Source: Psammoneis japonica
Taxonomy: Eukaryota
Assembly: GCA_008632985.1 (NCBI GenBank)
Contig: QPGO01000148.1
Span: 62,001-126,000 of the forward strand
DNA length: 64,000 bases
Reading direction: 5' to 3'
How positions within the stretch are numbered: the stretch's first letter is position 1; each line of letters begins with the position of its first letter. The notes beneath the pieces are model-generated. The model searched no databases, was not told the DNA's origin, and saw nothing but the letters and a program-made list of their open reading frames with translations. This document shows, piece by piece, positions 1 through 35,699 of the stretch. The position numbers and the translations under genes were made by a program.

Positions 1-1283
1 ATTCTTCCACTGTCGATGCAACAAGCCTCAATCACTCACCAATCTCATGCATTTGAGCAGAGACGAATTTGCACCATTCATTGTTGAAAACCAAAAGTCT
101 GCCCCTGATGCATTTGCAGGCTGCACAACTTCCCTGCAGACACAGCATGACATGGTCACAGTCATTGGATGGGCTTCCAAGAGCTGCGTTGGCTGCGTTT
201 TGAATGACCGCCCTGGCGATGCTAAGCTGGCCATGAGAGCATGCACTGCACTGGGAGGTGAGATTGACTTGGTCGCTGATGGGGTTGCCAAAGACTGCAC
301 TGTGATTGGTTTTGTCATTGATGGCAGTTGAAGAATCAGCTTCGTCGTCTTTGACAGCCAATGTGCTCTTTGGACCGGTGGCAGTCACTGCTGGGTTACG
401 TCAGCTGCGATCCATCAATCAAAGGACTGGGTTGGCACCAACAGGACACTCGACTCAGTCATCTTTGGCAGACACTCCACCCTTTCCTGCCTCTTCAAAG
501 AATCTCCACTCAACGCATTTGGCAAGATGAGCAAATCCAATGTTCTGAGCCACGGAGACAGACACTGGGCGAGGTGAAATCAAAGCAACATCTCCTCTGA
601 GATTGGAAAATGCACAGCAACATTCAAGCGCGCGAGTTGCTGGTGTCCTGGCTGGACAGAGAGCACGGAAGCATGGAACTTGTTCAACGAGCCACATGCA
701 GGATGTGGGCCATCTGAGAAAATCAAGACACAATCATCTCTGAAGATCCTCTGGCGACAGCAAAGCAAGGGCATCAGTTGGATTGCCAAGAGAGAGATTC
801 GGACCGTGGCAGCAAAACAATGCCCCATGGTGGGTGGTGATGTGTGTGTGGCTGGCCGCTGGCCGATGCGAAGAAACAGCGATCGCATCAGAAAACGTGT
901 CTCTCAATGCAGCCCCATGACAAACACAAATGTCTGTCATGTGCGTGTCAACAGAAAGCACGACATAGATTTGTTGCCTCACACAGACTTTTGGCGAAGT
1001 CGCAGGAGCAAACGCAGCAAACAAAAAAACAAATTGTGGCCATGGCGCTGAAGATTGTACAAGTGGCGGTGTTCCAAGTTTGGATTCGAGATGATTACTT
1101 TGATTGAACCCAGTGCCATTTAAATTGTGTCAAAACCAACTTCGCACTTGACGGACACGATTGCCTTCACGCGAAAATCCGAAAGACGCAAGCACGCACT
1201 GTGCCCGCTGTGCCACGCACTTTCTTCATCTCACAATCGCAGTTCTGGCAAGAGAGTGAAGTGTCGCATCAACAATGTCACCA

Positions 1284-2292
1284 TGTTGTCTTCTCTTGTC
1301 TTTGTGAACGTCGTGGTCAGCATTGGCCACCGTGACTTGATTGGAGTTATGATTCATCGCCAGAGCGCGTGCGATTGGCTTCGCGCCGGTCTTTGGTTCG
1401 GATGTTGCATGTTGCTTCAAGATCTCAACACAGTTGCCATCACGACATTCTCAGTGGTTCTCTGCATGGCTTGCGATGAGTGCATGAAACTCATGGACAC
1501 CTGGTTGCTCATCAAGCGGCAGAGCTTTCCGAGCGCCACTTTCAATTCGGTCTGGTCGTCCATCGTCGGGTCTCCCATCTGGAGCAAAGTCCATCTCTTC
1601 TTTGTCAAGCTCAAGTCATTCGCACTGAAGTGCATGGAGCTTGCTGTTTTCACATTGAAGGGAATCATCAAGCGTGTGGCTGGATGCGCGTTGCTTCTTT
1701 GTTCAAGCGTGCCGACAAGACAAGCGCCGCCGTCGTCTTGTTCAACGTCTGCCTGGCTTTCAAGAATTTCGATGTCAGCAGCCTCATGGGATTTCTCTTG
1801 CGTCTCATCCTGGGAGTGGCGCTGGCCTTTCTCATTCACGTGCATGCAACGGGATCGCATTTACCATCAACCGAGGAGGACCTGTCTGGCCATCGCGACG
1901 ACCATGTCAACAAGCCTTGGAAGGAGCCAACGTCCAAATTCAAGAAGGGACAGTGTGTGTGTCATCGCCATTCACACAAGACGTGGAGAGCAAAGATTTT
2001 AAGGGTCCATTTTGACGATGACCTTGACCCGCACTACGACGTGAAATTGGGCGATGCACGCGAGAAGCAGACCACCGAGGACCACCTTTCTGACAAGCTT
2101 GGCTCAGGTCACTTTCAGGTTTTTGTTGACATCTTTGACGACGATCCGGATTGCAGCTTGTTGCAAGGTGCTCAATGGGGGGAAGGGGACATCGTAAGTG
2201 CAATCTTGTGGCAATTGTTCCAACAAGATGTTCGACAGGGGAGGATTGCCGAGTGTCACATGTGGATGCGGTGTGACGAGTTTGCGTGTTGA
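1284..2292 (+). pseudogene. Degenerate gene: membrane segments plus a small SH3/Tudor-like module
   Basis: Overlapping ORFs 1127..2002 and 1480..2292. The segment KFKKGQCVCH..AKILRVHFDDDLDPHYDVKLGDAREKQT resembles a recurrent diatom motif (KVHxDDxLxPYYxIxLxDGREKQT) with Y replaced by C/H. Confidence 0.4.
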
Positions 2293-2940
2293 ATTCTTTG
2301 TTCAACTCGGGCTCTCTTTTTCCGAAAAAAAGGCCTTTGCTGTCAAGATCAGAGGGCGACCATCCATGTGCTTTTGAATGAGAGTTTGATTGATTGCATT
2401 GGGTCTTGAATTCAAGCTCGCATTGGACACACATTTAATTCGAGCTGATTCCGAAACATGTCATTGTTTCCGAACAGAGCATGTGAACGAGAACAAGAGA
2501 TTCACGCGGCACTCAAACTCAAATTCGCACCGGCATGAAGGTGGTGCCTTCTTTTTCGAAAGTGGAGGGGCGGCTGTTAAACAATCGAGAAAGGAAAGTT
2601 GAAGTCGAGGAAACCATTCAACACGAGAAACTCTTGCTCCCTCTGCAGGAGACGCTTTGCCACTCTAATTCAGTTGGGCAATCTGTTTTGGTTTCATTCA
2701 ATCAAGATGAGCAGAGTCTTGTAAAATAAAAAGATTGAACAAACAAGAAAATTTAATCAACACTTCTCTGTCTTGTCGCAAACCAGGTGAAAAGCACTGT
2801 TCATCGTTCGTGTCACAGCTTGCACTCGCAATCGATCGACACGCTGCTGCCGGCGGACTGGCATGGCACCCTTTAGACTAGCTGCGGATTTGTCTCTTGT
2901 TCAGTGCAGATTGACAGCAGCCACACTCTGCCAGCAGTCA

Positions 2941-3822
2941 TCAAGAACATGTGCCAACTAACTGTGCGGCATCTCTGGTTGCAGTCAGGCCAAGTAGATC
3001 CATTCCAGCTGCATGTCCCCTCAGATCGAAACCACAAGAGAGAAAAAGCCTCAACACCCGAAACATTTCGTGTGGAAGCTGGAAAGAATGCAGCTTGATT
3101 GTGAAACTCGAGGCACCAAGAAGGATGCTTTCAATGCACTTTGCACGAATCGCCTTGGAGGCGAGAATTGCATCAGTTTCTGGTTGATCCATTGCCCAGC
3201 GAGCAAGGTCGTGGGTCTTTTTTGTCACTGTTTTGGCCTGCTTTATGTCGTCTCTTTTGCTGCGGCAGGCCAACAGGGTGAAGATCCTTGAAAATTGTCG
3301 CCAAGCATGCCTCCTCCGCCTTCTTTTTTGATGCTTCCTGGAATGAGTGTGCACGGCAAATTCACTTGCTTTATTCTGCATCAAACAAGTCCGCCATGAG
3401 GAGACGTCTGTTTCCAAAGCACATTGGAGGGCCTCGCCCAACAATGCAGAAACATGCGAATGCCAAGAATGCAAAAGGCTCTCCTGACCAACAATGGCCG
3501 TGCTGGCCTTCCAATCAAAAAAGAAATCATCTCCTTCCTCGACGTTGTCGTCATGCTTCATGGCAAGTGAAAAGGCCAAGTGAATCAGATTCGAATGTCG
3601 TCGCTGAGCCACCGTGTGGAACAGCAGTTTACCATGCCAACGATCCGTCAACCAATTGAGGTTAGAGACATCGAAAGACATCAGAACTTTCTCTCGCGTT
3701 CCCATGCCAAGAGGCGCTTCGGGTCCCGCCAACTTGAGAGCTTCCTCCCTTCGACCGTCAACTTCTCCTTCAATCTCCTCCACACTTTTCCCAGACGCAA
3801 TGAGTCGCCCGATTTCCCCCAT
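2941..3822 (-). pseudogene. Degenerate protein-coding relic, function unknown
   Basis: Protein-like 293-aa ORF with no Tyr, inside the mutated block; no recognisable family. Confidence 0.3.
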
Positions 3823-4149
3823 GACACGATCCGTTGTGACTTTTGCACTCCCCTGACACGATCAAGGCGAGCCAGAAGTGGAGCGAAAACGTCCATCTTC
3901 CCTAGCTGCTCGGTGACAGGTCAAAAAGCAAACACAGTTGGCCAAAGGAAGGAGCCAAGGTGTGCTTCTGTTGCAAACAAATCAAACCTGCTTCAACCAT
4001 GTTCGCTACAAAATCCTTCAGTGGCTGAAAACGCAGCGACAACATCTGCCCGACCACACTCAATGATGGCAAACATCTCATCGCGGATCCAACCGATCAG
4101 CGCGGTTTCCATGATTTTATTGGCATTGCAAAGACACGTGGCCTTCCAC

Positions 4150-5400
4150 AACATCAGAAGCCACATGGCAGATCAACGCATCCCGAGCCGACGGCCGTGT
4201 CAAGTGAACAAAAAAAAACACGCTGTTTCAAAGGCCTCCACATCGGTTTCATTCGTGCAGTGTCCGAGCATTCACCCAAAAGCCAAAGACTTCGACAATG
4301 ACTCTGACAAAAACAGCAACCTGCATGCCACCATCCGTGGCCATAAAGCTCTTGAGGGTAAAAACAACCGACTCGGCAACATTGGGGAATCGCAAAGCGC
4401 ATCTGTGAACGGCCCGAATCAGCACATGTTTCGGCACAGACCATGCCCTTGGCTTCTGCCGTGGTGGAGTCCTGCTCTTGAGCAGTCTTGGCAACGTAGC
4501 GCTTGACCGTCGATGCGACATCAACAATGCAAAGGGCGACAATGTCCATGGCAACATCAAGGACCTTGCAATGACACATCTTGATGTCTTCCAATCATTC
4601 AAGAACAATGAGCTTGACATTGCTGTCATTCTTGCCATTCAACAAGTTTGCACAAGTGACGGCGGCAACCCGAATGGCAGTGGGTGCCGAAGAAAGCGAG
4701 ACTGGAGTCGTCCAAGCTGCCTCGCAGGACACGGCAGGACGTGCTGGAAAGCAACTGGAGACAAGACCCGGACAAATCGTGACTTCTGGGAAGGATCACG
4801 AAGACACACCATGCAAGTTAGTCCGGAAACAAGCAAGGTGAACCCATCTCCGTTCTTGCCAACGTCGTCCATGTTTTGGGCCAAGAACTGAACGGCCAAA
4901 TCCTCCGACTGATTGAAAACACGAGAAAAGCGCTTCTCCTCATGGCCATGTCTGTTTCGGCTTGGGAGGAATTCGTGCATGAGCTCTGGTGCATCGGGTG
5001 TCAAGTGCTCTCCAAAGAGCTTGTGAGCAACAAATGCGGCAAGCACCGCGTTCTCAACCTTGCAAAGAAAGCGCAGCATGCTGCCTCATGCGTGTTCATC
5101 CGGGTGATTCAACGTTGCACACCAAGAGGTGCCGGTGCTTGGGCACAACCTCCCAGCAAAGCATGCATGGCTTCTTCAATTGCTTGTCCTGCGAATTGAC
5201 ACAGAACCGAATCATGTGGTTGAGTTCGGAACTGAGCAACAAGCGACAGGAGAGAAGTTTTAAGCAGATTTATGAAGAGAAACAATCCTGACAAGCATGT
5301 GCTTATCCGGCCATCAACAAAGTGCCACAGCAACGAGAATGCAATGCTCACCTTTCCATCTCGGATGGCAGCTTGTGCGCCATCATGAATTTCTTCAAGC
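4150..5400 (-). pseudogene. Frameshifted coding relic, function unknown
   Basis: Chain of protein-like minus-strand ORF pieces (4639..5079, 4154..4594, 4249..4638) in different frames. Confidence 0.25.
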
Positions 5401-7312
5401 CTGCCACATCAACAAAGGCAGAGAAGGCGTCTGCGATTGCCGTAGCTCTGTCATGACTGCTGCCATCTGACAATGCCAACAAGGATAAAACAGCATGGCC
5501 ATGACGGCACTGCCCCGTGGTTGATGCAACACCAGCAAAACCTGTCGCTGGACGACAGCTCTTGGCACTTTCTGATGTACGGTGCGCACTTCGTGCATTG
5601 GTGAGACATGGCACTGTCGTGTGGTCATCAAACAGGTTGTGAATTTCAATCGCGCTAACTTGCCTGCAAGAAGTCATCATCCAGTCAGTGTGTGTTCAAA
5701 TTCATTCTTTCCTGAAGACTCCAAAAGACATTGTCATTGCCAGAGGTCCTCATCATTGGACAGCTCTATAAATTGCATCATGCATTTAAAACATTCACAT
5801 GTGGATGCACAAAAGAAAATGAAACAATGTGAGTTTCGGCTTCTGCCACCTCCTCTTTGTGAGTGTTGCGTGCCACTCTGCCTGCTGCGTGCAAAAGCTC
5901 ACACACATCAGGTCAGAGGAAAAGACCTGCAACTGTCATTTCTCTCCTTTTAAAACAGGCTTGTCAAAGTTTAGAGCCAAAGGCTCAGATTGTGGGGACC
6001 ATGGCGCGCTGCTTCACGGCACTCTTTTCTTTGATGCAAAGACAGCTTGTGCCCCCGAGAGCAAGTGATGGGCACGCCAAACCAACAAGACAAATTGTCC
6101 TCCAACCAAGCTCTCTGTTGCATGCTGCATGGACCCCAAAGTGCAGGAGCCACAAGGTCAAAAGTGCGCGGCTGCAAGATTGCACAAATGCCAGCTTTGT
6201 CATTGTGCAAAAGACAATGAGCAAAAATGCAACCCCGCGGTGACTGAAATGTCTCTTGTGCAGTCCACAAGCATGTGCTTGGGAGACAAAAGCCAGCCAT
6301 GCGCAACAAAGCCCAGCTCAAAAGCTTGGGTGCAGCGGGCAGTTTTGCTTGGTGGTCATTGAAGCACCTCCACACCACCAGGCTGAGTGACAAGAGAGAT
6401 GCTCCACAACTGCAAACAAAGCCCATCACCAAACAAGAGCATGTTTTGATTCAGCATTGACAGCTGCTTGCATCAAAGATGAGGGGCTTTCTCTGAGCTT
6501 CTTTGAGCAATCCATGGACATGGTCAAGCCCATTGAGCCCAGAACACCCTGCAGCTGACAAAGGAACTGAGAGAAGTGCAAAGAAACAGGAGGCACACAG
6601 AGTGATTGATGACAACAAGTCTCCTCTCTTGCACCTGCCACTTCAATGTTTCCAGCGGCATGTGGGGCTGCACACCTGTGCAGCACGCTTCCCCTGCTGT
6701 GCCACAAAGAAGAAGAAGAACTGCAGAGACATCTGCAGGACAATGAAGCAGCACACCCCTCTTGTCATGGCAGACAACAAGTGCGCCAAGTTGTGTGTGA
6801 ACAGTCAACCCATGATTGAGCTGTCAACAAAGAGCACGTGATGGTGCTCTCACTCAAATTGCTTGTGTGTCATCAAGCATCAAGGGAGTCCACACCATGG
6901 TTTGTCAAATCATTGCACAGGCTCCATTGAGAACAAACACCACCCAAAACAGCACATCCATAATTGGGGCCACAATGCCATGACACCAAAAAAGCCACAT
7001 TGCTTTTTTTCTGCACTCTTGGCAAGCACCTTGCTGCACCCATCATGGCAGATGACAAAGCACTGCTCGTGGTTTGCCTTGGTGTGAAGTGCCCACATTT
7101 GTGCTGTTCAAGTCAACCAGCTGCATGCAGGCCAACACCACAGCCATTGCACAAAACCAAGCCAGCCAGCAACACAAGAATGGGCCCCATTTGTGGCAGT
7201 TGAATGGCACACGCCAGCATGACAACAGCCAAGTGGACACACAGCACATTTTGAGTCAGCCAAACAGAAACAGATGGACCCACAAAGGCAGGGCACAACT
7301 GCTCTTGCTTGT

Positions 7313-7541
7313 TTGAGGAAAATGAAGGGTGAGGTGTTGACATTTTGGGCCATGCAGCACAGAGCATGAAGGTTGGCAACCCAAGAACTGCCATCCAAAG
7401 AAGCGCTGTTGATGGCACCACCAAGTTGAGGAGCAACCACACAGCCACAGCAGCCACACTTGATCCTCCTCAGCTTGAGGCAAATGAAGGGTGAGGTGTT
7501 GACATTTTGGGCCATGTGGCACAGCATGAAGGTTGACAACC
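7313..7541. repeat. Direct repeat, ~67 bp x2
   Basis: ttgagg(a/c)aaatgaagggtgaggtgttgacattttgggccatg...gcatgaaggttg(g/a)caacc at ~7313 and ~7475. Confidence 0.85.
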
Positions 7542-8093
7542 GATGGGCTCCAGCCCCAGGTGGGACTTTTTGTGACGTTGGGCCCGCAGAATTCTGCGTG
7601 CGAGCTCTGCAGCAAAATTGTCAAGCAATGGATGCACGAATGATCGCCAACAGAAAAAGAGGCAATTTTGCGAACGCATCTCCTCCTCCACACTTGAAGT
7701 GCATTCTTTACAGCAGAGAACTCCCAATTGCTCACCACGGAGTTGCTCGCCAAATGCTCACCATGACTTTTTCATCAAACGTTCTGTGTCATCATTTCCG
7801 TCACTTGCGTCACTTGCAAACTGCCACATCACCCGTTGGAGCCACTGATGTTCCCCCCCTTTTGTCAACAGACAAAGACTGACGCGAATGTGCCACAAAA
7901 GATGCAGAGCACACACTTGCGTTGTTGTTTGCATTGAAACGATGAGACGCCGACACCCCAAAGAGGCCATGCAATCCACACCCAAGAGGCCACACCATCC
8001 ATGCCATCCACACCCAAGTCTAAAAAAGATGCACAAGTGCCCAGGTTGTCCCATTGTGTTGCTGCAGCACAGCCAGAAAAAACAAGAAACGAC

Positions 8094-9530
8094 ATGAACA
8101 TTTCTCCCATGCTTTATCTGCCCGATTGGCTTGATCAACATGGGGCGGAAAACACGGCAGAAGATGAACTCAAGAAGCAAAGCAAGTCTCTACAATCCAT
8201 GAACTGGGTCACTGCTGGTTTGGAGGAAGAGATGCAAGCACAGGCTCCTTTGAACAGTGAGATTTGCCACGAGCGATTGAACGAGCACTGCAAGGAAGCA
8301 TTCAAGCAAAAGGCTGCAAAGCTTTTCCCCGAGGGTCCAGTGTTTGCACGTTGTGCTCAACTTGTGAGCGCTGTGAAGATTTTCTTGGAATGTGGGGAGC
8401 CAAAGGTGCGCATGTGCAAAAGACCATCCAGCACTTCTGTTCGCAACCCCAGCAAAGGAAAAAGAGCAAGCCTCAACCGTTTGGCGATGCATCTAACCAA
8501 TGCAACATTGCTCCATCGATGAAAGCCCAGTGCAAATGCCCTTTCCAAATCAAGCACAGCTTTGTTAAAAAAAAAATGAAGGACCGGTTCACTGGCAAGG
8601 TTCGGCCCAGCATTTTCCGCCAAGTGAAGATTGCAAATGCCGTGCATGAACATTCTTGTGAATTGAACACGGTGCACGAACGAATGGCAAAGCATGCCAG
8701 TGGATCCACCCAACCAAGCTTGGATGGACTTCAGAGTGCAGTTGATGATCTCCGAGACCAACCATGCATGAAGGCAGAAGAACTTCATTGTAAACTGCTG
8801 AAGCACCTGCCTTCGCATGTGGGTGCTGATGCCAAATTCACAGCCAACTTTCAAAGCCGCATTGCCAACTGGATGCTGTGCAATGATGAAGATGCCGAGG
8901 TGTCACCAGAAGACATGAAGCATCTCACATCAAAGATGCCCATGGCATCAGATGAATTGATTGTTTTGGACAGTTCTTTGACGAGGCTCAATCTCAGACA
9001 AATGCTGCAGAAGATCATGCAAAACAGTGGGTCGACCTGGGATGCACTGCAGTGTTCACAAGATCCAAAGACGCAACTCTTTGCGTTTGACTTCCATTTG
9101 AAATGCGATGACACAGGACGACCAGAAGCACTTTGCTGGATGACGGGGGAAATGCGGCACTGCTTGCTGCGGTGTGGCGATGTTCTGTTCCTGGATGGTC
9201 AGAAGCGACAGCACAATGGTCAAGGGTGGCCATGCATTGGACCCTGTGCAAAGGATTGCGAAATGAAGGTTGGATGCGTGGCGGAGTGTGCTTGCATGGA
9301 AGAAGCCCACAAGTGCTGCCGATGGATGCTTCTGTCCGCTGTCGACATGGAGCCACGTTGGAGTGTCGATTGCATCTGAGTGGTGTTTGCCAACCAACAC
9401 ATTGCTCAAGGTTTTGTTCACTTGCTAGAATTGGAATGTGAAAAGGACAAAGGCGACCACCACACACTTCTCAGGGGTGACCACCATCACTCTCTTAACG
9501 AGCTGCTCCCGTCAAACGAAGCATTTGGAC
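8094..9530 (+). pseudogene. Mutator-like (MULE) DDE transposase relic, frameshifted and 3'-truncated
   Basis: CPFQIK..HEHSC (N-terminal Zn-finger-like). LCWMT..LLRCGDVLFLDGQKRQHN..GWPCIGP..AEC..EE..CRWML..EPRW matches the MULE core (YGDVLFLD..YN..WPY) with Y->C/H. Frameshift near 8390, stop at 9377-9379. Confidence 0.8.
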
Positions 9531-9616
9531 CAGTGTGCACAACGATTCAGTGCCAGATGATGTGGCACCCCACGCTGTGTAAAGACACACAGTTCCCGTT
9601 TCCATTGATTCATCCT

Positions 9617-9998
9617 CTGTGGGAGGCACTGGAGCGTGGCAACATGGAGTGTGAGAGACAGCGCGATCGCACTTTTGACGTTGTGGGAGTGCGACAGCCA
9701 TGGAAATGTCATTGCCTGTTGCAACAAGCACAGCAGGAACAGCACAGGGTGTGGCAGTTGTCTGAATGGTGCTGACGGCGTGGTGACTGTGGGAGGCACT
9801 GCAGCATGGCAAAATGGAGCGTGAGAGAGTGGCATCGTGCTTTGACATTTTGGGAACACGATGGCCACAGAAACGTCATTGCCTGTTGAAACACACACAG
9901 CAGGAACAGTGCAGGGTGCGGTGGTTGCCTGAATGGCGCTGATGGCATTGGATTCATTGTGGCAACTGTGGGAGGTGCTGGAGCGTGCCAGAGACAGC
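9617..9998. repeat. Diverged tandem repeat, ~170-180 bp x2 plus a partial third
   Basis: Units begin ctgtgggagg at ~9617, ~9788 and ~9966 and share gtcattgcctgttg..cacagcaggaacag..ctgaatgg. Minus strand reads as a Pro/Thr-rich peptide repeat. Confidence 0.8.
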
Positions 9999-10779
9999 TT
10001 GAGTTGTGGCAAACAATTTTGTCGGTGGCTGGTCAAGGAGAGGCAAAGCACCTTCATCATCTCTTGAACCAGGTGCACCAGGAACAGCGTGGGGCATGGT
10101 GGTCACGGGAAAGGCAACCACGGCGTTTTCATTCATGACAGAAGCTGCGGCAGGCACTGGAGTGTGAGAAACAAAGTGTCAATGAACAAGCTCTAATTTT
10201 GGCAGTTGTGGGCATGCGAAGGCCACACAAACAACATCACCTGTTGTGCCAGAGGAATTGGCAAATGAACAAAGTGGTGGCGCATCAGGGGAAGGTGATG
10301 GAGACGAGTGTTTTGAAACCATCATGGTGGACTTATGTTGTTTTATTGGTGTTGACAGCGACTTGTCTTGACGCGTGCTTTTTCGTTGGTTTCGCGATCG
10401 CGGTGCTCGCGAACACTGCTAGAGCACGCGTAGTCTATTCAAGCAAAGACAAGTCTTGCATGTATGGTGCGGTTTATATTTTTATTCAAATCTGATAAAT
10501 CTGAATACATAATGCACTGAGACTGCGTCTGGCCGTGGGGAGTGGGGGGTGGGGAGGCAGGAGGGGTCGGTCGGGGACAAAATCCGAGAACCTGATGGCC
10601 GACAGACGTGGTGAGCACGTGGTGAATGAGCGAGCGAGATAGATGAGCGGGCGCGGGCCGATGGTTGTGTGACAGTCCGTCCGTGCACCTCCACCATTTG
10701 TAATCTGCTTTAAAATGAAGACTCTCTACTAGTTTTATCCCAATGACACGAATAGGATACAGTGCTGGTAGGGCAATTT

Positions 10780-11583
10780 CTACCTCCACGACAAGGAATC
10801 TGAAGAGTACGTACTTCTGCGCCCCAAAGGCCAACTCTTGGTGGCAAGTGTTTCGTCTCCAAAGTAGTCACCGACAAAGACCCAACCTAAACAAAATCGT
10901 GAGGCGTCTGACTCATCATCCCAATGTAGAAGTTTCCTCAGTCGATCAGGATTCTGAATCATTTGATTGGTTTCATCCTCCGTCTTATTGATGGTCTTGT
11001 CGTACACGCCGCCCGAGCTCCAATACGCGCCCAACCCGTGTGCGGTTGCCACGAGAAACATGTTTTGGACCGCCATGCTTACACTGGCAACTTCTTCGAT
11101 AAAGGGATTCTTCTTTTGTGCGTCGTGAACGATAATTGCAATAATGTGGGATGCCTTTGTGGCGTTCGTTCGCTTCTTGTCAAACTTTTTTTGTAAAAAC
11201 GGTTTTCCTGTAGCCGTACAGGCATCCTTGTAACTATCCGCCAGGAATTCACCCAATTGTTGCTTGCTCGAAAACGATTCAAACACGACAAATTCCCATG
11301 GTTGAGTGACATGGTGTGTCGGTGCCCATCTTGCTGCTTCCAACATTTGCTCAATCACTGCACGTTCCACAGCCTTGCCCGAGTATTGCTTGGGAAAGAT
11401 GGAGCGCCGCTGTAAAATGACATTTAATACTTGCTCGGGTGATGACAAGGTGGGTCTTCTTGCTTGTGATAAAGCTCGCTTTGCTTTTTTTCGCCTTTGC
11501 AGCAATAGAGCCGACGTTCCGGCAATGGCAACTACGACGACTGTCGCCAAAACACTTGAAGAGGGGTGATTTGAATTCGTCAT
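10780..11583 (-). CDS. Nitroreductase family protein (YdjA-like) with N-terminal membrane anchor
   Basis: 267-aa intact ORF with RRSI, EAARWAPTHHVTQPWEFVV and AVQNMFLVATAHGLGAYWSSG motifs of the FMN nitroreductase fold. Confidence 0.9.
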   Translation of the reverse strand: MTNSNHPSSSVLATVVVVAIAGTSALLLQRRKKAKRALSQARRPTLSSPEQVLNVILQRRSIFPKQYSGKAVERAVIEQMLEAARWAPTHHVTQPWEFVVFESFSSKQQLGEFLADSYKDACTATGKPFLQKKFDKKRTNATKASHIIAIIVHDAQKKNPFIEEVASVSMAVQNMFLVATAHGLGAYWSSGGVYDKTINKTEDETNQMIQNPDRLRKLLHWDDESDASRFCLGWVFVGDYFGDETLATKSWPLGRRSTYSSDSLSWR

Positions 11584-12787
11584 GTGGATTCCGCAAGGCT
11601 ACTTTCGGTATTCTGGCAGCAAAACTTAGAGCAAGAGAAACAAGAAAAGGCATGAACTGCAAGTATCGTCATATAGATTCGACAACAAGAAAAACAAGAC
11701 GGCCATTCAACAGCAGAGCATAGTATTGAAAAGCGAGAGAGAGAGGACTCTGAGCAAGGATGATCCGACATATCATGCATATTCCCTCCATAGAGAGGGC
11801 GCCCAAAGGAACAAGACCAATCCGCACAGAAATAAATGTTCTCTCTTAACTACTCAGCAAAACGAATATATCCTTTTTTTGCACGCCACGTTTTGTGGCA
11901 CAGTCGTTTTGACAGCTGAGAGCAGTATAAGGATATGCTCTACTAGAGCAGACTTGAGTATAAACATGAATGACCATGAGAGGAATGAAATCTTTTATGT
12001 TCCAATGGTTTCAGACGGCACTTCCTAACGCGGATAATCTTCATTGTCCTCTCGAATAATAATAAGAACGTCTCCTTTTGGATTTCAAGGCCACGAGTAA
12101 AACGTGCCTCCTCCATCATGTATAAGAATCGGAACCCAGTGCTATTTATTGGCATTCATTGACGTTTTCTTCTGTGCTGCACTCCTGAACAAGTCACAAT
12201 TTACCAAACCATATAACTTACTCTCGCTTACGGTTCTTTTCAGTTGCCTTGTGAGTTGTGGTGAATGCACAACATAAGGCTCTCTGAGTGTTTGTTGTTG
12301 CGCTGCAATAGAAAAGCGGCCATTCATCCTTCATCCATGCATCATGCCTTTTAGTTATTTTTCTGCTTGCGCTGTTTTCGTTTGAGGTTATGAGTTGTGA
12401 TTTTGAAGGGCGCGGGCCGACGGACGGATCGTTGAATGACGGATCGTTGAATATTTATAACCGTATTTGATACAATTTATCTAAAAAATTCTATTGCCCA
12501 ACGCTTTTGAGTCCCGTGGCGATCTTCATATCATTTTATTCAGCTTTGTAGCTATTGAGTCGTGTATTGTCGTCATTTTCGGCTCTCTCGCGCGCTCCAC
12601 GCTCTCGCGCCCTCCGGCGCTCCGGCCTCTTCAGAGACGTTCAATGTCTCTCATGTTGTGTGAATGGTGTTGTGAACGAGAAACAAACGTGGTGTGAATC
12701 AATCACCGCCTTGTCGGATGCTTCTTCTACTGAATTAGCATTGATTAAAATTGACATTTTATTCTCGTTGTGATTTGAGAATATCGA

Positions 12788-15700
12788 ATGGTGGTCGTTT
12801 TGGGTGCGGCGCTATTGGCTTATCGGTTGTCAAGAAACAACAAGAAGAACAACGAGGAGGACGGGGAAGAACAACAACAACAAGAAGAAGGATTTAAAGC
12901 ATCTGCTGAAGAGTATTTAGAACGAGCAGAAGCTCTCGGGAGAACATCGTCGGATTTTTTGGTTAGAACAGCTCTCAGTTGCACTCGTAGCGATACGACA
13001 AGTACGACGACTCGCGGTGAAGAAGCATCTAGTACGGTATCATCGCACGAGCGACCGTATTATTCACGAGTTCCTAGTCATCATCAACAACAAAAGCAAC
13101 AAGGAAAGAAAAAGAAAATCAGCAAAATGTCTTTTACGTCGGGGAACAACAAGTCACACGAGTCAAATGGGATTGTATGTAACGTAGCTGATGCTGCTGC
13201 TGCTTCACAAGGATCACCAATCACTGATTCGGTTATTCGTCAGGAATGGATTGACGCTGTGTTTGGACCGTCGTTTTTCCCTTCAAAGCTCGATTCGGAT
13301 TATTCTCCACCACGACAGGGAACGGGTCTATCCAATATTGCTCACTATGTCTCGTATGAGGCTCAAATCCCGCCGTGCTCTTCTTCAACAAAACACAGTG
13401 AGGATGGCCATAAAGTTGGTGTTACGCTATCCAAACTTGCATTGGGGATTTATGCGAAACACGTAGCTGCGGGATCAGAAGCACATGCTGCGGGTATCGA
13501 GGAGGGGTCCGTACTGGTGGATATCAACGGGATTGGAATGTTGGCGGAACCGTCCAAGCAAGCTTTGGAACGAATGTGGCAATACGAAGGAATCTCTAAC
13601 AATAGAGACGCAGACAGTGAAGCTGGCTTTCCGATCGTGTTTTTGAAACTCATCAAGAATGGTTCGCTTTATAATGTCGTACTGGCATCGAAGCCACCGT
13701 ATGGTATATCATGGGCATCGTGTGGAAACTTTGCCCTCGTGCAAAAATCCTATTCTCACGCCCTCGACGCCGGAGTTCGACGTGGATCTCTTCTTGCCTC
13801 CATCAATGAGAAATCCATGAGGGATTTCGACATTTCTGGCGCCGCTGCCCAGCTCAAGGAACTCTTTCAATCCGACCAACCCATTCGCATGAGTTTGGTT
13901 TATACTCCAGCGGCCGCTCGTGCTAGTCACTACGAGCGATCTCTGGCAGTATCCGACAGTAGTACGCCACGAAAGAAGCAATCGTCGTCGCCAAGAAAAC
14001 AGCCCATGGTATCGCAAGAAGGAGTCGAGGTTCGTGTTCACCCATTGGAATACAGTATTGGGGCCTTTTTGAATTCGTCCTTTCGAAACGAGGGACCTAC
14101 GACTTCTACAAGGCAAACCACCTATGCGCCATGCCCTGCTGTACAAGCAATCCAAATGTTTGAGAGATGGCCCGTCATTGACGATCTCGGGTACCTTGTC
14201 AGATTCTGTAACGTGTCGTTTAACCAAGACTTGTTCTTGTCCCAACACGTTTTGTTGGAACGGAAGGATCCGGCAGCTGCTCTTGTGCAATGGTTGTCTG
14301 GTACAAAGGACGCGCACCTACTCGTTGGGCCATTCTTGTTGCAATTTCTCGGTACTCTTTGTTTCTCCAAATCGATCAATGATCAAGATGACGAGCACAG
14401 TAAAGGACATGCCGTGGACGACGCGGCTGTCCGTGACGCTAACTTATTGACCCAGTGTCTGCTTGACGTGGTACGTTGTTGGTTGATTGGAGTCGATGTT
14501 TCAGAACGCGTGGCCGCTTTTTTGTAGTTTCGTGCAAAGGTCATTGTCTCACCGAAAAACACCCTCTTCTTTTTAGGCACGAGAAAACAACAGGTTTTGC
14601 CAAAGCTTTTACTTTTTGTTGCGGTCTTATATTGCGACGCTGGAAGAACAGCGGAAAACAATCGGAATGGAAAATACGTCTCGGGGTCTCTTGAGCGTTT
14701 TGCAGACTTTGGACGTACTCAAGTCTGCCGAGAAACAGCTAGTGGAGCAGTTGTCGGATGGTACCAGGGAGGAAACCAATTTGTTGGGAGACGAACTGCA
14801 GACAAAGTCAAATGTGAGCGATGATTCTGGTATGTCGGGTAGAAGCAGTCCGAAAAAGTTGAGCAGTGGCAAGAAAAAGAAATCGCGGCTACGTAGTTTG
14901 TACAGAAAATCCAGCAGCAAGCACCAAAAAGACGCAGATCGGGATGGGAACGAAAAGAAACGGACTAGTCCACAGAAAATTCTGCCCACTCGAGCAGAGT
15001 CGGCACAGTCTGTGCCACCTGCTCAGCTATTGGACAACATGAACAAATTTCTGAGCGAACTGGATGGCATTTGCGATTCGGTTGAACGTTCGCTTTTGAA
15101 GTCCGTCAGCAAGAAAATTACCGAATGGGCCCTGCAGCCGTGGTCATCTTCGAAGGAAACGACCTTGTCGAAGGTGACGGGAATTATGCGGGATGACTTG
15201 AAACGAGTTTCGGGCGTCTCTCCCAAAACGCCTGTGGCCAATCCGTTCAACTCTGGTGAAATGTTTGTTGGTTTGGATAGTAGCGATTCGTGGATTCTAC
15301 CCAGCGCCCATTTCCCGATGCTTCTTTCGTTCGTTGTGAAACAGAACGAATCTAATCCACCTGGGATGGACGCGGAACAAGAGAAATTGCCAGATGCTTC
15401 CTTGGAGGAGTGTTTGCATAGAACGCGTGTTGAGATTGTTGCAGGCTCCATGAAAGGGGAAGAAAAAGATCGCAACCATCAATGTGAACGTCGGTATTTT
15501 GTACAGGGTGCCGTGCGCGGTATAATGAAGGAGTCTGGTCGGAGGTACGTATCTAGTCGCTAACTTGAAAGCTTTAGATTCGCGATGTATGCACTAACAA
15601 TGCCATGAAATGAAATTATTCGCTCAGCGCCGGTGGCGACGGTGCAGGAACTCATTTATGGGAACGAGACAATGTTTTAACCTTTGATACGAGGTCGTTG

Positions 15701-17281
15701 CGGGGAGGAGCACCGAGCACTCTTGCCCTTCGCGTATCGTTGGTTGAGGTTGACAAAGACGGACAGGACCAAGTGGTGAAAACTGACGCCGATGGTAAAT
15801 TGCATTACTCCGCCGTTGTGGGATGGTGTTATGTCGACCTTAGGCCTATGTGGCGAAAACTAGAGAAATTGAAGCGCCAGAAAGGCAGTGGCTTTTCGAC
15901 TGTTACTTGCCATGCTCAGGTGTTGCCCTACGCCGATAATGAGATTGCGTTTGACCAACACGGGGAACTTATTCACGAACCTCTTCCAAAATCATCAGAG
16001 GTACGTTTCGGAAGCGGCTACTCGTTCTCAAGCTGAGAATCCATTTTTTCACCATTAGCTTATGTCGTACTACTTGTAGCGCATCGAACTGCATTTCCGA
16101 GTTACTACCGAGTGTTTAGAGTTCGATCATGGATCGAGCGGCTTTCTTTCTCCCAAGAGAATGCTCCTGTACAAACATGATGACGACTTGAGGCAGGAAT
16201 TGTTTGCAATTGAATTTATGAAGACTTGCGACAATATCCTCAAGGCTTCTGGTTTGGATATGAAACTTCTTACGTTTGAATGCATGCCTGTTGGATCGAA
16301 ACGAGGATTTATTGAATGGTTACCAGGTAGCGTCCCTTTGAGCGATATTTGTGCGCCGAGAAATACATCTCTGGGATCAGAAGACGACAACAGTCGGAGT
16401 AGCGACGGGCAGCAAGGGTCAGCAAATACATGTCTCGACGATGAAGCATCCATATCTGAGATTGCAAGAGCCGGACTGATGAAGTATCAATATTTCCGTG
16501 GTCCACAAACGGAACAGTCGCCGCGCGGGTCGTTCCTTAACAACCCAATTCAAGACTTTTTGCGAAATGCGGCATACGATTCAGAGGCGCCATACATGGT
16601 CCAAAAGGACGTTATGGACACTTATGTGAAGAGCTGCGCTGGATACTGCGTTATTACTTATTTGCTTGTAAGTTGTTTCACTTATTTTCCTCCCGCTGCC
16701 TTCGGTGCACGCAAAGCTCTCATGTTTCTTGTTCCTTTTCTCCAGGGCGTGGGTGACCGCCATTTGGATAACTTGCTAATGCATCAAACTGGTCACTTTT
16801 TCCATTGCGATTTCTCGTTTATCCTCGGGAACGATCCGAAAAAGTATTTGCCAATGAGGTACTGTGTATTGGACGTTTCTCAAAATCATGTTGATGTGCA
16901 GTAGTTCGCTCACTTTGAATGTCTTTGCATTATCTTTTCTCCAGGATTACCGAAGATATGATTCATGGCATGGGAGGCCGGGAAAGTGACAACTATGCAA
17001 TGTTCCTCTCGTTGGCCGGCGCTGCATTCATAGCTCTCCGACGACACGAGAATGTTCGTGTGATTCTTTCCTTGGCGAGGTTAATGGTTTCCTCAGATCT
17101 ACCTGACCTGTCAGTGAATCGCGATCCTTCCATAGTTGTGCTTTCCCTGCGAGACCGCCTCCGTTTAGACCTCAGCGACCATGAGGCCATTACGTTTATG
17201 GAAGAGCTTATTGAAAGCAGTATATCGTCGAAGATGTGGGCTGCAGTTGATGCGCTACACTCGCTTGGGAAGCGTTTCTAG
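12788..17281 (+). CDS. Vps34-like phosphatidylinositol 3-/4-kinase with N-terminal PDZ-like regions; 6 exons
   Basis: Introns 14471-14576, 15545-15627, 16001-16079, 16668-16745 and 16859-16944 are all GT..AG and join the frames. Catalytic motifs [31 protein letters not shown] and HCDFSFILG.DPK. PDZ-like motifs AHAAGIEEGSVLVDING and AGVRRGSLLASIN. Confidence 0.88.
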
Positions 17282-17413
17282 CAACAGTAGAACGCATTCT
17301 TTTAAATTCTGTACTAAGCGACGTCGATCTCTACTCTATTCTTCTCGCACAAAATTGCGCACGTGCGACACGACTTTATCAAATCATAATAGACAAGAGC
17401 GATGATTTTATCG

Positions 17414-18721
17414 TCACAGGGAAGCAAAGAAATCTCTTAGTCGGTGATCCTTGAGCGCCTTTGTAGAGTCGATGGAACAGAATCGTTTGGATTCAACCGA
17501 CTTTTGAAAAGCTGACATGATTTGCTGCTTTCCGTTTTTAGAAATGAAAAGGTTAGGTACCAACTTTGATTCATGTTGCAGTGACAAGTCCAGCAGAGTA
17601 TTCAACTGTTTTACTGACAAGCACTCCAACGGGAACTGCTGCAGTAGAGTATATCCCATATTCTTCTTGACATGTTTCTCAACAGCTTTTCTAGTTTGCG
17701 TCCGATCGAGACGTGATGTGGTAGGAATCAAGCCACTCAGTTTTGCCTCAACGGCGAGCATGTCATGATGCAGATCTTTAGAGGCAGACAAATTCTTGTT
17801 GTTGCCACTCCTCGACTGATCATTCTTAGCAAATTTGCAAATCCGAGCTGCTTCTGGCATTAGCTTGCAGAAGAAACTCGTCAGGTATCCGGCATCATCA
17901 TCATGCATGCTAAGAATTTGAACATCATCAAAGCGATCTTTCCACTTCTCAATTGATGAAACCATTTCATATCCTTGCTCCACAAAGCTGTCAAAGTAGG
18001 CGGAAAAGGAAGGTATGGCTCCTGCTCTTGACTCAGGCCATAATAAAAATCGTTTCTTCTTCTTTCCTCGTGAGCCATTTGGGTTATAGTATTCGTAATA
18101 CCACGAAGGCATCCATTCGTAGAAACGACGATATGTAAAGAGAATACGGACACGCCACTGTTGCCGGTCAACAATGGGCAAGAGGTGCTTCCAGAGGTAC
18201 TCGTCCTCTTGTTTTCCGAAACGAGAGAAGTTCTCATCTGATACGAATACATTACGACCTTGCTTGTAATGGTCTTTCAAAATCAATTCTAGCTCGTCCC
18301 ACCGCAATGAGCGTTCTTCTTTGTTTTCCATGATACATTGAAAGCACAATCCGTGAACGTCTACCAGTGTTTTTCGCCTGTATTCGCCCAAAAAGTAGAT
18401 ATTATCCTCCTTAAGAAGATTCAAATGTTCTCCAGCGTATGATTGAATCGTGGTCGAGCCCGTTTTCGGTGGCCCAACGTGAATAATGAGCAAAGGTCTG
18501 GGAGCGTCGTCATTCCTGGTTTTTCTCTTCACCGGCGTGGGCACACTTGTTCTTGTCGTCGCTTCAGAGTTGATGATGATTGACGACGTGGCGATGTTTC
18601 CTTCATTGTTGAAACACAACATCTCATTCAAGGACGTCCACAACGACCACGAGCACAAAAGGAAAATAGAGAGTAGTGCTACAGGTCGTCTCTTCATGCT
18701 GCTTTCCTCTGTTGAGTTCAT
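17414..18721 (-). CDS. Diatom-type sulfotransferase-like (P-loop) type II membrane protein
   Basis: IHVGPPKTGSTTIQ, VSDENFS and YRRFYEWMPSWY motifs, with an N-terminal TM helix. True start is probably 18721 or 18697; the ORF extension to 19126 lies in mutated DNA. Confidence 0.75.
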   Translation of the reverse strand: MNSTEESSMKRRPVALLSIFLLCSWSLWTSLNEMLCFNNEGNIATSSIIINSEATTRTSVPTPVKRKTRNDDAPRPLLIIHVGPPKTGSTTIQSYAGEHLNLLKEDNIYFLGEYRRKTLVDVHGLCFQCIMENKEERSLRWDELELILKDHYKQGRNVFVSDENFSRFGKQEDEYLWKHLLPIVDRQQWRVRILFTYRRFYEWMPSWYYEYYNPNGSRGKKKKRFLLWPESRAGAIPSFSAYFDSFVEQGYEMVSSIEKWKDRFDDVQILSMHDDDAGYLTSFFCKLMPEAARICKFAKNDQSRSGNNKNLSASKDLHHDMLAVEAKLSGLIPTTSRLDRTQTRKAVEKHVKKNMGYTLLQQFPLECLSVKQLNTLLDLSLQHESKLVPNLFISKNGKQQIMSAFQKSVESKRFCSIDSTKALKDHRLRDFFASL

Positions 18722-19789
18722 AGATGCGCCTTGTATTGACTCTGTCGATGTGTCAAATGATGAAATCGTGTGCTGATGTCTCATGTCTGATGTGCGGTCA
18801 TCGCATGAATGTCCCCAAAAAGACCACAACAATGTTGTCGTTCCGAAATGTCGCAATCGCATCATCACATAACGTGTTGCGTCGCACTGCACCGCGGCAT
18901 GATGTTCCCGCTGCACCATCCCATTTGGGCAATGGCACGGGGAGGGCAATCTTTTGATTGGTTCTGGTTCAACTTCTCTGCTGCAACAGCAAAGTTTCAA
19001 GAGTGGAGAGCATGCGCGTGCAGCACTGACAGCAATGCAGTGACAGCAATGGATGCCCTGCCTGCAGCCTGCAATGAGCAGCAATGGGTGGCAAAGAAAC
19101 AACTCCCCGCCTGGGCCAAAAAGCACTTTTCACTGGGCAGCACAGAGCAAAAACACAGCAGCTTCTGGCCACCACACATTCTCAAAAAATTGCAGACCCT
19201 TCTTTGTCAAAGACCCAGGCGGATTGGCCGCCTCCCAAAAAGGAGATCTGCCCTTCTTGCTGGGTGGAGGTGCGCAGCAGAGAGGGGGGCATCTCACCCA
19301 GGGGCTCTCAGCTCACAACAATTGCAGAGCACAAATGATGCTGGGTTTCTTCAGCAGGGGGCACAGATGCTGCACTGGAGCTCAGCACATTGGGGAGACT
19401 GCACAGCTGCTCGTGTGCTCCTGTGCTTTTGTCGCCCCACAGTGCTCGGAGGTCAACAAACGCTGCTTTTTCTTGGGCACAAGTGCACAAAAGAACAGCT
19501 GGTGCCAAGGCACAACAGCCAGAGCAATGATGTAAAAAGTGCTGTCTGAACAAACAAAGATGAGAGGTGCAAGCTTTCTTTGGCCACAAACAAACCAAGT
19601 GTGCCAACCACCAGCAGCGCTCGCAGCACGTGCCAAACGCTGCGCTGGCCGCACATGTTGATTGCTCGATGTGTTCATGTCTGCTCAGTGCACAAACCAT
19701 TGTCATGTGTGCTTTTGTTTCTGTGTGCTTTGTTCTTCAGCATCAAGTTTCTGCTTCTTGCCAAAATTGCCAATCACCTTGTGAGGCGA

Positions 19790-20075
19790 AAGTCAGCACA
19801 GGTCAACAAAAGTCAACACATGAGCAAACATGAGTCGACAAAAGTAAACACAAGTCAACATGAGTCAACTTGAGTCAACAAAAGTCAATGAGTCAACAAC
19901 AAGCAAAGAAACATCTGTGGACAAACTGACAGTCTTGCATCTTGCTGGGCCTCCTGTGACAAATGTCGCAGATGCAGACAGATTTGCACGGGCGCCACGC
20001 ACACTCAACTTGGCACAGTCAACATGAGTCAACAAAAACCAATCCAAGTCAACATGAGTTAACATGCTTGAGTGA
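19790..20075. repeat. Clusters of ~10-bp AGTCAAC(AAA/ATG) repeats
   Basis: gtcaacaaaagtcaacacatgagcaaacatgagtcgacaaaagtaaacacaagtcaacatgagtcaac... at ~19800-19900, again at ~20017-20065. Confidence 0.75.
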
Positions 20076-22113
20076 AAGCATTTGTGTTTGCTCATGACTT
20101 GATCAATCCAACACTTTTCATTGGCTCAATGGACGTCACCAATTTGTCTGTTGTTGAGATTTAAAAATCACACACACACAAGACTGTGTCAACAAAATTC
20201 ATGGACGGTGCTGCAAGAAAGATGCACCTGCTCCTTGAAAACTTGCCAGCATTGGTCTGTTGTGCCCAGCGTGCTTGAACAGTGCAGCTGGTGTCAAAGC
20301 AGCAGCAAGGTGGAGGACCGTCAACAAAAAGGTGCAGCATGCCAAGAGCTCTGAGACATGCTCAAAAATGACCCCAGCTCTGTAAAAGCAGAGTGTGCTT
20401 TGCCTGGCATGCTTGGCAGCTTTGTCTGGCTCTAACAAATGCCCCTTGCATGGGCCCACTTCCCAACATCAGCTGCCTGCCACTTGCAGCCAATGCATGT
20501 GTTTCTGCACATGTTCCTGTGCCAATGCCGCCTTTCTCAGAAGGTGTTTTGCTGGGTGGTCTCCACAACTCTTTTGGCCCCTTTTGCCATCAGGCATGCC
20601 CTCATGTCAGCTTGATGTGCAACAGTTTTCAGCGGACACAAATGGCGCCAATTCCTTGTGGCTTGCTTGCTTGTTGCCTCATTTGGCAATTTTTTGCATT
20701 TTTGGTGCATTTTTGCACAGGATCCAGCAAAAATGTTCCACAAGCCTCAGAAAGATCCTCCAATTGTCACAACATTTTCAATGCAAACAATTTCCATCCA
20801 TGCCCATCAGCCCCCAACAATTGGTTTTGCTCCTGCTGGCCACTCAAGTTGTTCATCTCATGTGGTGAAAGTGCTGTCCCTCCTGCTGCAGCACTTGCGA
20901 GTGTTTGTTTGGACAAACCATTGGCACATTGCTTGACCATGATCATCCATTTGCACTGGCATCCATTTGCTGCATGGATTGGCATCTCTGCACAGGCTTC
21001 AGCTTCAATTGTGTGTGAGAACAATGTCTCTTCTGATGCCCTTTGTGTCACATCACCAAGGCTTTCTGTGTCACACCCACAAGTCCTGAACACCCCCTTT
21101 TCTGCTTGCAAGCCTGCCAACCTCACTCTGCTCCAAGCAGAGAGCCATTTGCTTTTGTTCCAGTGTGCGCAAATGTGAAGCTCAGCCAGTCTTTGTTGAA
21201 AACAAGGCCCATCCTTGGAAGCAAGGACTTTCTCTCAGAGTTTGCACGGACTTTGAATCCCCTCCTTAACATGGCTGTCCTTTGCTGTGGCAGCTTGGGT
21301 GTTTTGCATCCTCTCCAAAAGAAAGCAACAACCTCGCAAGCTTCTGCCATGCCCCCAGTGGGGTGCACTGGAAGTGCAGGTTGGCCGGTGCCACTGTTGC
21401 TGGGAAAAAGGTGTGACAGCACACTCAAAACTGGGTTTGAGCTTTTTTGTGTGACATGGACCCATGGAATTCCATGGTTTGAGCTCTGCAGTTTGCATGT
21501 TTGGTGGTTTGTCTTCAACATCTGAACAATTGACCAAATTTGTAGCCAGCAGTTTTTGAAGATCTGCCTGCACTGAACAACTGCACAGATGAGGGTCTCT
21601 GCTGTGATCATGAAATCACAGCCATGCTTTGCCATGCTCTTGGGTGGTGTGTGGGAGATGACAAAGTGGAGCCCACTGCAAGAGCAACTTGATTAAAAGT
21701 GAGAGCTGGCAAGAAAACCAAGATGTCAAAGAGTGGGTTCATGATGTGGAGTGCAGACAACAGCAGTTTCTTGGCTTGCCAACGCCATGCTGTGCTGCTG
21801 CAGCTCACATTGTCATGGTGTCCCAAGTGAAAAGCTGGGGACAGCACTAGCAGATGATGGCCACACTGCCAACTTTGCACTTCCAGAGTTTAAAGACTTG
21901 GCAACTGGGGCTGCAATGGGGGTCCAGCTGTCTTTGGCTGCTGGGCAGCAAAGCTGTTTGTGGCAATGGCATGAGAGCAACATGGTTTTGAGCAAATTGG
22001 ATGACCCAGGACAAGATGCGTCAATGTCCCCAAACTGGGCACTGTCCCAACTCCCTGAAACTTGACACGGCAAACAGCTTGGGCTCTCCCTGTTCTCAGC
22101 TGCTGCAGTTCCT

Positions 22114-22672: not shown

Positions 22673-22979
22673 TGTCACTCTGCAGAAGAGAAACAACAAA
22701 TCCAGATTGGTGCGGTGACCAAGGAACTCAGGGACATTCAGAAGATGTGGGAGGTTGCACGCCTGTTGAGATGAAGAGTCTCCAAGTGCTGGGTGTCTTG
22801 CAGGCTGTGTCACATCTGTTGCCCATCTTGGTTGCCATGACCATCATTGTTGGCCAAAAAGAGACCACAAATGACAGAGGATGCTGCAGCCAAATCAGGG
22901 TCTCTCATCAAGATGAGAGAGGGCAGGAGATGTCAGTGCAAAGCGCGCAGCAACACAAACACCAACAACACCCATGACC

Positions 22980-35617: not shown

Positions 35618-35699
35618 GCTTGCTCGCATGCAGCCTGGAGCAGCACACCAGCAGACACCGCAGAACGAACACCATGACAAGCACCATTGGATGCAATGC

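Follow-up and report, generated by a model that had tools for sequence, protein, structure and literature searches.

Preferential loss of TA before a pyrimidine marks a domain-limited, strand-symmetric T:A>C:G mutator in the genome of Psammoneis japonica

Blocks of the Psammoneis japonica genome have been stripped of nearly all TA dinucleotides, and the sites that survive do so in particular sequence contexts. The stretch analyzed here, referred to as the window, comprises 64,000 nucleotides of contig QPGO01000148.1 (positions 62,001 to 126,000; G000:C149:62001-126000 of a 91-Mb eukaryotic assembly). A two-state dinucleotide hidden Markov model (HMM), used as the caller of TA-poor blocks and islands, divides this 64-kb window into four of each; the observed/expected ratio (o/e) of TA flips sharply between them, from ∼0.05 in blocks to ∼0.55 in islands, and the recognizable, intact-looking genes lie in islands. 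The block under study, block 1, extends at least 20 kb upstream of the window, where TA o/e is 0.00-0.21 in 40 of 40 bins (stretches L033 and L034). We are nearly certain that these blocks are the product of a distributive, strand-symmetric, and domain-limited T:A>C:G mutator with a motif of about TA-Y-(not A), in which Y is a pyrimidine. The segments used for the survivor counts are as follows.

1..10330, no strand: TA-erased block 1 (HMM and counts: 56 TA, TA o/e 0.088, CG o/e 0.60)
10331..18884, no strand: gene island with TA o/e 0.56, carrying a nitroreductase, a PI3/4-kinase-like gene, and others, and forming part of the control (HMM)
18885..23493, no strand: TA-erased block 2 (HMM; 12 TA)
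27897..31030, no strand: TA-erased block 3 (HMM; 16 TA)
33566..48749, no strand: TA-erased block 4 (HMM; 74 TA)

A preliminary description of the window had claimed, by eye, that the TA sites left in mutated sequence are mostly YTAR (R, purine) or half-protected (YTAY and RTAR), with RTAY very rare, and the counts bear this out. The 56 survivors of block 1 consist of 24 YTAR sites (TTAA 10, CTAA/TTAG 11, CTAG 3), 30 half-protected sites (ATAA/TTAT 12, GTAA/TTAC 10, CTAC/GTAG 6, ATAG/CTAT 2), and 2 RTAY sites (GTAC 2, ATAT 0, ATAC/GTAT 0). A caveat on such raw counts is that the half-protected class stands slightly above YTAR (30 vs 24). Islands serve as the reference spectrum, with the N[TC][AG]N total of each context as its denominator. 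Under uniform loss, block 1 would have kept 8.4 YTAR, 28.6 half-protected, and 19.0 RTAY sites (chi-squared 44.2, p 2.6e-10), and uniform depletion, named in the preliminary description as the contrary outcome, is rejected. The check it proposed, a count of all NTAN tetramers in blocks versus islands, gives the order RTAY < half-protected < YTAR wherever it was run: retention is 0.013, 0.13, and 0.36, respectively, in block 1 and 0.009, 0.10, and 0.35 in the four pooled blocks of the window. The same order holds in a genome sample of 20 stretches of 10 kb from other contigs, chosen blind and mostly from large contigs rather than drawn at random. A block is present in 19 of the 20 stretches and block sequence makes up 98,036 of the 200,000 bases (49%), in which retention is 0.008 for RTAY, 0.065 for half-protected sites, and 0.29 for YTAR. 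The expected equality of YTAY and RTAR is no test, since the two are reverse complements. The survivor-context bias is a genuine feature that recurs across the genome.

If the two strands are modeled as surviving independently, each at a rate set by the base 3' of the A (+1), all ten tetramer pairs in the window composition are fitted closely (negative log-likelihood, NLL, 23.9 with four rates), with fitted survival of 0.88 for TAA, 0.40 for TAG, 0.17 for TAC, and 0.10 for TAT. Uniform depletion across NTAN (NLL 115.9) and a strict two-class rule in which TAY is changed and TAR is safe (NLL 44.3) were both rejected. TAR is slower, not immune: 65-70% of YTAR sites have been lost. The next base also matters, as an A at +2 is protective in all four +1 classes; in the composition of the 20-stretch sample, retention is 0.72 at TAAA vs 0.19-0.30 in the other contexts of that class, and 0.44 at TAGA vs 0.11-0.15.

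Survivor counts are silent on which strand was changed, and unmutated paralogues were therefore used as the reference. Those of block 1 are the TA-rich copies L061, L064, L065, and L015, which supply 92 ancestral TA sites. A DNA polymerase alpha (Pol alpha) pseudogene elsewhere in the window supplies another 154; its two intact copies (C286 and C59, in L002 and L028) are 96% alike mutually and 84-85% like the pseudogene, and are either alleles or recent duplicates. The features compared are listed below.

935..2901, no strand: mutated copy of a multicopy segment of uncharacterized function (TA-rich copies L061-L064 as references)
2969..4072, minus strand: mutated fragment of a RING-finger/ankyrin gene (its TA-rich copy, in L065, is 82% identical)
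9617..10548, no strand: repeat adjoining a transposase remnant, in units of ∼170-179 nt (a TA-rich copy is present in L015; the homology spans the block edge near 10330)
35833..39833, plus strand: Pol alpha pseudogene with its intron kept (intact copies C286 and C59 give the direction of change)

The 92 sites of block 1 became TG in 37 cases and CA in 38, with 11 kept and 6 otherwise changed; the kept sites are distributed as 1/24 RTAY, 4/53 half-protected, and 6/15 YTAR. The Pol alpha pseudogene shows 60 TG, 72 CA, and 9 kept sites, so that across both sets 207 of 246 ancestral TA were converted (97 TG, 110 CA), 20 kept, and 19 changed in other ways. At asymmetric sites, where only one A precedes a pyrimidine, that A was changed more often than the other (block 1, 31 vs 14, p 0.016; pseudogene, 52 vs 17, p 3e-5). 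In competing-hazard models the Akaike information criterion (AIC) is 376 for the +1 base, 422 for the base before the T, and 424 for no context. A rule built from the base 5' of the T alone was rejected on this comparison, and a smaller effect of that base (-2) remains beside +1. The earlier proposal of a strand-symmetric process with its rate set by the base 3' of the A therefore stands, and its corollary that YTAR is fully safe falls with the 65-70% loss given above.

A larger set of ten alignments, with one derived copy per reference and four references that are mutually related, contains 480 sites, 434 of which have the outcome TA, TG, or CA. The A before a pyrimidine was again the one changed, by 153 to 52 at asymmetric sites. 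Relative to TAA, the hazard (bootstrap range) is 3.2 (2.2-5.0) for TAC, 3.2 (2.3-4.8) for TAT, and 1.1 (0.7-1.7) for TAG; in the same 434 sites the rate is reduced by about half where an A stands at +2 (p 0.001), with a smaller effect of the -2 base. Where the flanks are unchanged, A>G is found at 139/167 TAC and 137/160 TAT sites. Outside TA it falls to 2-4% (AAN 56/1833, 3.1%; CAN 71/1646, 4.3%; GAN 38/1561, 2.4%), a more than 20-fold need for T at -1. Even this low rate is higher before a pyrimidine (97/2123, 4.6%, vs 68/2917, 2.3%), a bias abbreviated VAY>VAR (V, any base other than T).

The change was made in DNA and after duplication, because the Pol alpha pseudogene keeps its intron and sister copies changed different strands at the same TA. 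In the window's copy of the multicopy segment, the strand changed matches that in each of five close relatives at just 10/26 to 17/28 sites; agreement is higher with its nearest copy, L054 (22/29), and with L056 (14/21). Three rivals were weighed here: editing of an RNA or cDNA intermediate by an ADAR-like enzyme ahead of insertion, selection acting on stop codons, and an artefact of sequencing or assembly. In their favor, A>G in a 5'-U context is described as ADAR-like by Mettrop et al. (10.64898/2026.01.13.699255), and TAA and TAG are depleted in blocks. As the main cause, however, editing, stop selection, and artefact are refuted by strand symmetry and the kept intron, and we regard them as scarcely credible. 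Unlike ADAR-type editing of retroelements, in which an RNA intermediate leaves a single edited strand per copy, both strands were changed equally within a single intron-bearing copy (60 TG, 72 CA), and a DNA-transposon remnant is affected along with the intron-bearing pseudogene; the stop-like TAA and TAG are the best kept and TAT and TAC the least. An artefact is unlikely because a single assembly contains copies in both states and because the TA-poor sequence recurs, at 0-4 differences over 295-829 bases, in contigs of run X1, which may derive from the sample that was assembled.

Sites also change independently along each copy. Neighboring conversions fall on the same strand in 374 of 742 cases against 373.6 expected, and in 138 of 267 against 135.4 expected within 15 nt; strand coordination was sought at 10-2000 nt and rejected at every distance. 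These figures bear on the possibility that an error-prone Y-family polymerase, either a Pol iota-like enzyme or an altered Pol eta, copied patches of the block DNA and inserted G opposite template T in 5'-RTA, with no base damage involved. The genome harbors a predicted Pol iota-like gene and four further Y-family loci (by eye Rev1, kappa, and two eta), whose activities are likewise predicted. Human Pol iota is reported to prefer G over A opposite a template T (PMC3979402, PMC3031609), with an efficiency of insertion 3-10 times greater (PMC3979402), and Pol eta to give WA>WG changes (W, A or T; PMC11507097). The process shares with Pol eta its A:T>G:C transitions and a T 5' of the A among the hot contexts, and non-TA A>G is slightly raised at distances of up to 5 nt from a TA that was converted (95/1511 vs 186/3821, p 0.04). 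Set against this, AA, which the WA rule requires as a hotspot, is none (3.1%, below CA), same-strand runs are absent even within 15 nt, and no nearby deaminated C is needed: of the 61 non-YTAR sites lying over 100 nt from a mutated CG, 51 were still converted. Dependence on nearby mutated CG was rejected as an explanation on these grounds; the weak trend present (5/88 kept within 5 nt vs 10/61 beyond 100 nt) is confounded with copy age. No paper describing a TA-only context for Pol iota was found in the literature searched, and the polymerase also occurs in other diatoms (PMC8595933), so that its presence is not special. A polymerase origin is, in our estimate, improbable. The iota-like gene is as follows.

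L112, G000:C22:252628-253293, minus strand: Pol iota-like gene (best PDB match human Pol iota, E 2e-26; kappa 2e-14; eta 1e-12)

Loss of TA outruns a second form of decay in the same blocks. Three young copies have changed 38/93, 40/87, and 45/84 of their TA sites and only 7, 16, and 6 of ∼110 CG sites, and in block 1 93/140 CG survive compared with 11/92 TA; CG>TG decay appears to be a slower and separate process. It prefers TCG about twofold (135/413 changed vs 17-20% for other NCG). In the Pol alpha pseudogene, TCGA was kept at 0/24 sites. A single enzyme acting on A in TA and on C in TC was considered and is unsupported, TCC and TCT not being above other CC and CT contexts. At CA, C>T is almost invisible (9/1602 vs 101/2376 at CC and CT), which would follow from chronic action that removes every newly formed TA. 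The young copies, in which many more TA than CG sites have changed, give indirect signs, drawn from sequence comparison, that the process may still be at work here.

Edges are sharp, lie inside homology, and vary from copy to copy. In the young copies nearly all TA, including ATAT and GTAT, are kept in the last ∼350 bases of homology; the block edge within the repeat at 9692-10548 differs in place among four copies; and copies 92-96% alike on contig C49 differ in mutation state. Block 1 itself ends at a CG-rich stretch, 10331-10440, in which CG and TA are both kept, though the repeat homology runs on to 10548.

The proposed mechanism is a mutator confined to marked chromatin domains, consisting of repeats and of duplicated and dead genes, that would convert T:A to C:G at TA steps of chromosomal DNA, site by site and on either strand, over a long time and until almost no TA is left. 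The A would be deaminated to hypoxanthine by a zinc-dependent TadA/ADAT-like enzyme with specificity for T at -1 and for a pyrimidine at +1, and the inosine would escape repair and then be copied as G. The targets, the edges, and the CG decay suggest that recruitment is by silenced chromatin and that the effect is a defense against mobile elements, whose Tyr codons (TAY) and TA-rich signals would be destroyed. A DNA adenine deaminase is favored by the almost pure transition, the independence of sites, and the match of the motif to TadA-derived editors; we judge this chemistry to be about equally likely to be right or wrong. In adenine base editors, activity is reported as best at TAY and worst at MAR (M, A or C), with CAT, GAC, and GAT also favored (PMC10879117), and as higher at AC and AT than at AA and AG (10.1101/2025.05.14.653640). 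The blocks and the TadA-derived editors (ABE7.10, ABE8e, hpABE5.20) have in common A>G in DNA and the TAY motif, in which the A is preceded by T and followed by a pyrimidine. The editors are engineered and guided, and the TA strictness seen here is far above theirs.

Several observations weigh against the motif or the chemistry as just described. The composition hazard in the 20-stretch sample is 0.91 for TAG vs 0.35 for TAA, and the alignments show no such gap; re-creation of TA sites may distort the composition figure. The VAY>VAR bias is partly present between intact copies too (66/1712, 3.9%, vs 58/2226, 2.6%). An A>G change in TAY on one strand reads as T>C in RTA on the opposite one, so that sequence cannot separate them, and two T-side routes are therefore among the rivals. 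CAT, GAC, and GAT, which the editors favor, change at only 3-5% here vs >80% for TAY. TACG is kept at 13/85 sites vs 5/75 for TACC and 4/123 for TACT, counts that are pseudo-replicated because sites recur across copies; this set consists of 14 of 27 alignments plus the four Pol alpha ones, five having been dropped on TA thresholds and eight for identity <79%. A deaminase of single strands might leave strand runs, and none are seen. The deaminases of the genome (TadA-like, ADAT2, two ADAT1/ADAR-type, and one APOBEC-like) include none tied to the process.

Wild-type TadA prefers UACG in tRNA. The link to a TadA-type enzyme raised in the preliminary description thus gains from the TAY match to adenine base editors and loses from TACG, the DNA form of UACG, which is not preferred; it is a fair lead rather than a result.

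The context bias may also be physical, with stacking of purines 3' of the A (TAA, TAG, TAAA) holding the base in the helix, in which case any base-flipping mutator or repair step would favor TAY. The protective A at +2 in every +1 class (TAAA 0.72, TAGA 0.44 retention) and the mild VAY>VAR bias between intact copies both agree with this; it explains neither the domain limits nor why T is needed at -1 by a factor of more than 20. We consider stacking a rather unlikely source of the motif. It is compatible with a deaminase and would lower only the step to TadA, the motif then saying little on enzyme family.

A further T-side or A-side route is an enzyme that marks one base of the TA step in silenced DNA, for example by TET/JBP-type oxidation of the T or by modification of the A; the mark would then miscode, and the context would be that of the writer, 5'-RTA. 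Oxidized T can pair with G. Such a mark accounts no less well than a deaminase for the strand symmetry, the independence of sites, the sharp domain edges, and the chronic action, and it has a parallel in the slower CG decay of 5-methylcytosine type in the same blocks. We know of no TA-specific writer, however; a search for Tet_JBP found no match in the genome at E 0.1, which is no proof of absence; and the +1 match to TadA-derived editors would become a coincidence. A miscoding mark appears unlikely to us.

Several deaminase genes are present as candidates for the favored adenine deaminase. A genome search finds a TadA-like gene with HAE, PCxxC, and an Asp at the place equivalent to D108, and an ADAT2 gene with HAE, PCxxC across an intron, and an Asn at the 108-equivalent place. 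TadA-like, ADAT2, and ADAT1-type proteins are housekeeping tRNA enzymes, and APOBECs act on C. Deaminase-family and protein searches identified no deaminase fused to a Tudor domain. One of the two ADAT1/ADAR-type genes may be the tRNA enzyme, which leaves the second as an unexplained candidate. The APOBEC-like frame lacks a start codon, so an upstream exon is likely, and the fusion to an oxygenase probably belongs to nucleoside metabolism.

C40:112674-113392 and C79:344558-345390, strand not given: two separate ADAT1/ADAR-type deaminase genes (L197-L200; deaminase-family search)
L083:1057-2016, G000:C2:247035-247991, minus strand: single-copy APOBEC/AID-like zinc deaminase frame, HAE ... PCxxC (SNAD4, E 1e-12; best PDB match APOBEC3F, E 2e-7)
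L048, G000:C79:88506-88676 region, minus strand: deaminase domain fused to a 2-oxoglutarate-Fe(II) (2OG-Fe(II)) oxygenase in one 491-aa frame (domain match)

To our knowledge, no natural enzyme that deaminates adenine across chromosomal DNA is established; adenine editors had to be evolved from TadA. In the literature found, hypermutation restricted to TA has been the subject of one report so far, without an enzyme. In Bigelowiella natans, 230 of 231 mutations were TA-restricted transitions in two integrated viral regions, at a rate raised ∼1000-fold in mutation-accumulation lines, and an ADAT2-like A-deaminase was proposed, not shown (Mettrop et al., 10.64898/2026.01.13.699255). Both systems have T/A>C/G change only at TA, on both strands, and in bounded regions, with clusters that are TA-poor and rich in CA and TG. 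Bigelowiella differs in its lineage, in its targets (integrated DNA of a nucleocytoplasmic large DNA virus, NCLDV, and of a virophage), and in that mutation was caught in the act; its NCLDV region has a TA o/e of 0.45, and its genome has 124 clusters. Here the change is near saturation (o/e ∼0.05), covers about half of the sampled DNA, is accompanied by CG decay, and has a measured +1/+2 context; the targets are transposon remnants and host-gene duplicates, with genes spared and none of the targets shown to be viral. The main text of Mettrop et al. contains none of the words 'diatom', 'trinucleotide', 'flanking', or 'context', and its Fig. 2B and Table S2 may show flanks. No other report of TA hypermutation in diatoms or targeted to repeats was found in the literature searched, within the limits of the library. 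A set of 27 metagenome loci of at least 4 kb (of 80 from a chaperonin bait; 303,720 bases, several redundant, gene-dense) contains no 1-kb window with TA o/e <0.15, a result uninformative on the range of the process.

The repeat-induced point mutation (RIP) of ascomycetes changes CA>TA through a cytosine methyltransferase homologue and follows homology, affecting the copies that pair. Common to RIP and the blocks are repeat-associated, strand-symmetric, and dinucleotide-specific transitions that ruin mobile DNA. The direction is reversed, however, as TA is lost here and C>T at CA is at the 9/1602 given above. Unlike in RIP, edges lie inside homology and differ per copy, and the pairs L061/L062 and L063/L064 are largely unmutated, though some pairs may be allelic. 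We put forward tentatively, as something rather short of probable, that SAR algae (stramenopiles, alveolates, and Rhizaria) possess an adenine base editor of natural origin. This would be a DNA adenine deaminase, recruited by chromatin and specific for TA-Y(-not A), which works on chromosomal DNA and would have rewritten about half of the genome as the A>G counterpart of RIP and APOBEC defense.

TpA hypermutation itself is already known from B. natans. The direction-resolved flank motif provides a fingerprint for any candidate: TAC and TAT at about three times the rate of TAG and TAA, protection by an A at +2, non-TA rates more than 20 times lower, and no strand runs. Its resemblance to the motif of engineered adenine base editors narrows the enzyme search. 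The process also strips TAA and TAG stops along with Tyr codons, opens long spurious frames in dead sequence, and disturbs repeat dating and annotation.

Block 1 is a patchwork of dead sequence: the copy of the multicopy segment, the RING/ankyrin gene piece, a high-copy short repeat, and a remnant of Mutator-like element (MULE) type with its adjoining repeat. No RNA holder is listed for block 1. The two features yet to be placed are given below.

7542..7715, no strand: very high-copy short repeat resembling a miniature inverted-repeat transposable element (summed contig depth; loose ends at 7542 and 7715)
8264..9379, plus strand: decayed MULE-type transposase frame, Cys/His-rich (Atlas features 0.92-0.95 to MULE/ZSWIM RNaseH-like clusters)

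Summed contig depth over the short repeat is 23,782-37,513 (bins 7201-8000) vs ∼60 for single-copy DNA, a several-hundredfold excess. The transposase frame has no match among Pfam domains, and its richness in Cys and His is expected from the conversion of Tyr codons. Frames in dead DNA are very long and similarly rich in Cys and His, one of 1244 aa lying upstream of the window (L034:3159-6893, minus strand); long open frames in blocks follow from the loss of TAA and TAG and are a trap for gene prediction.

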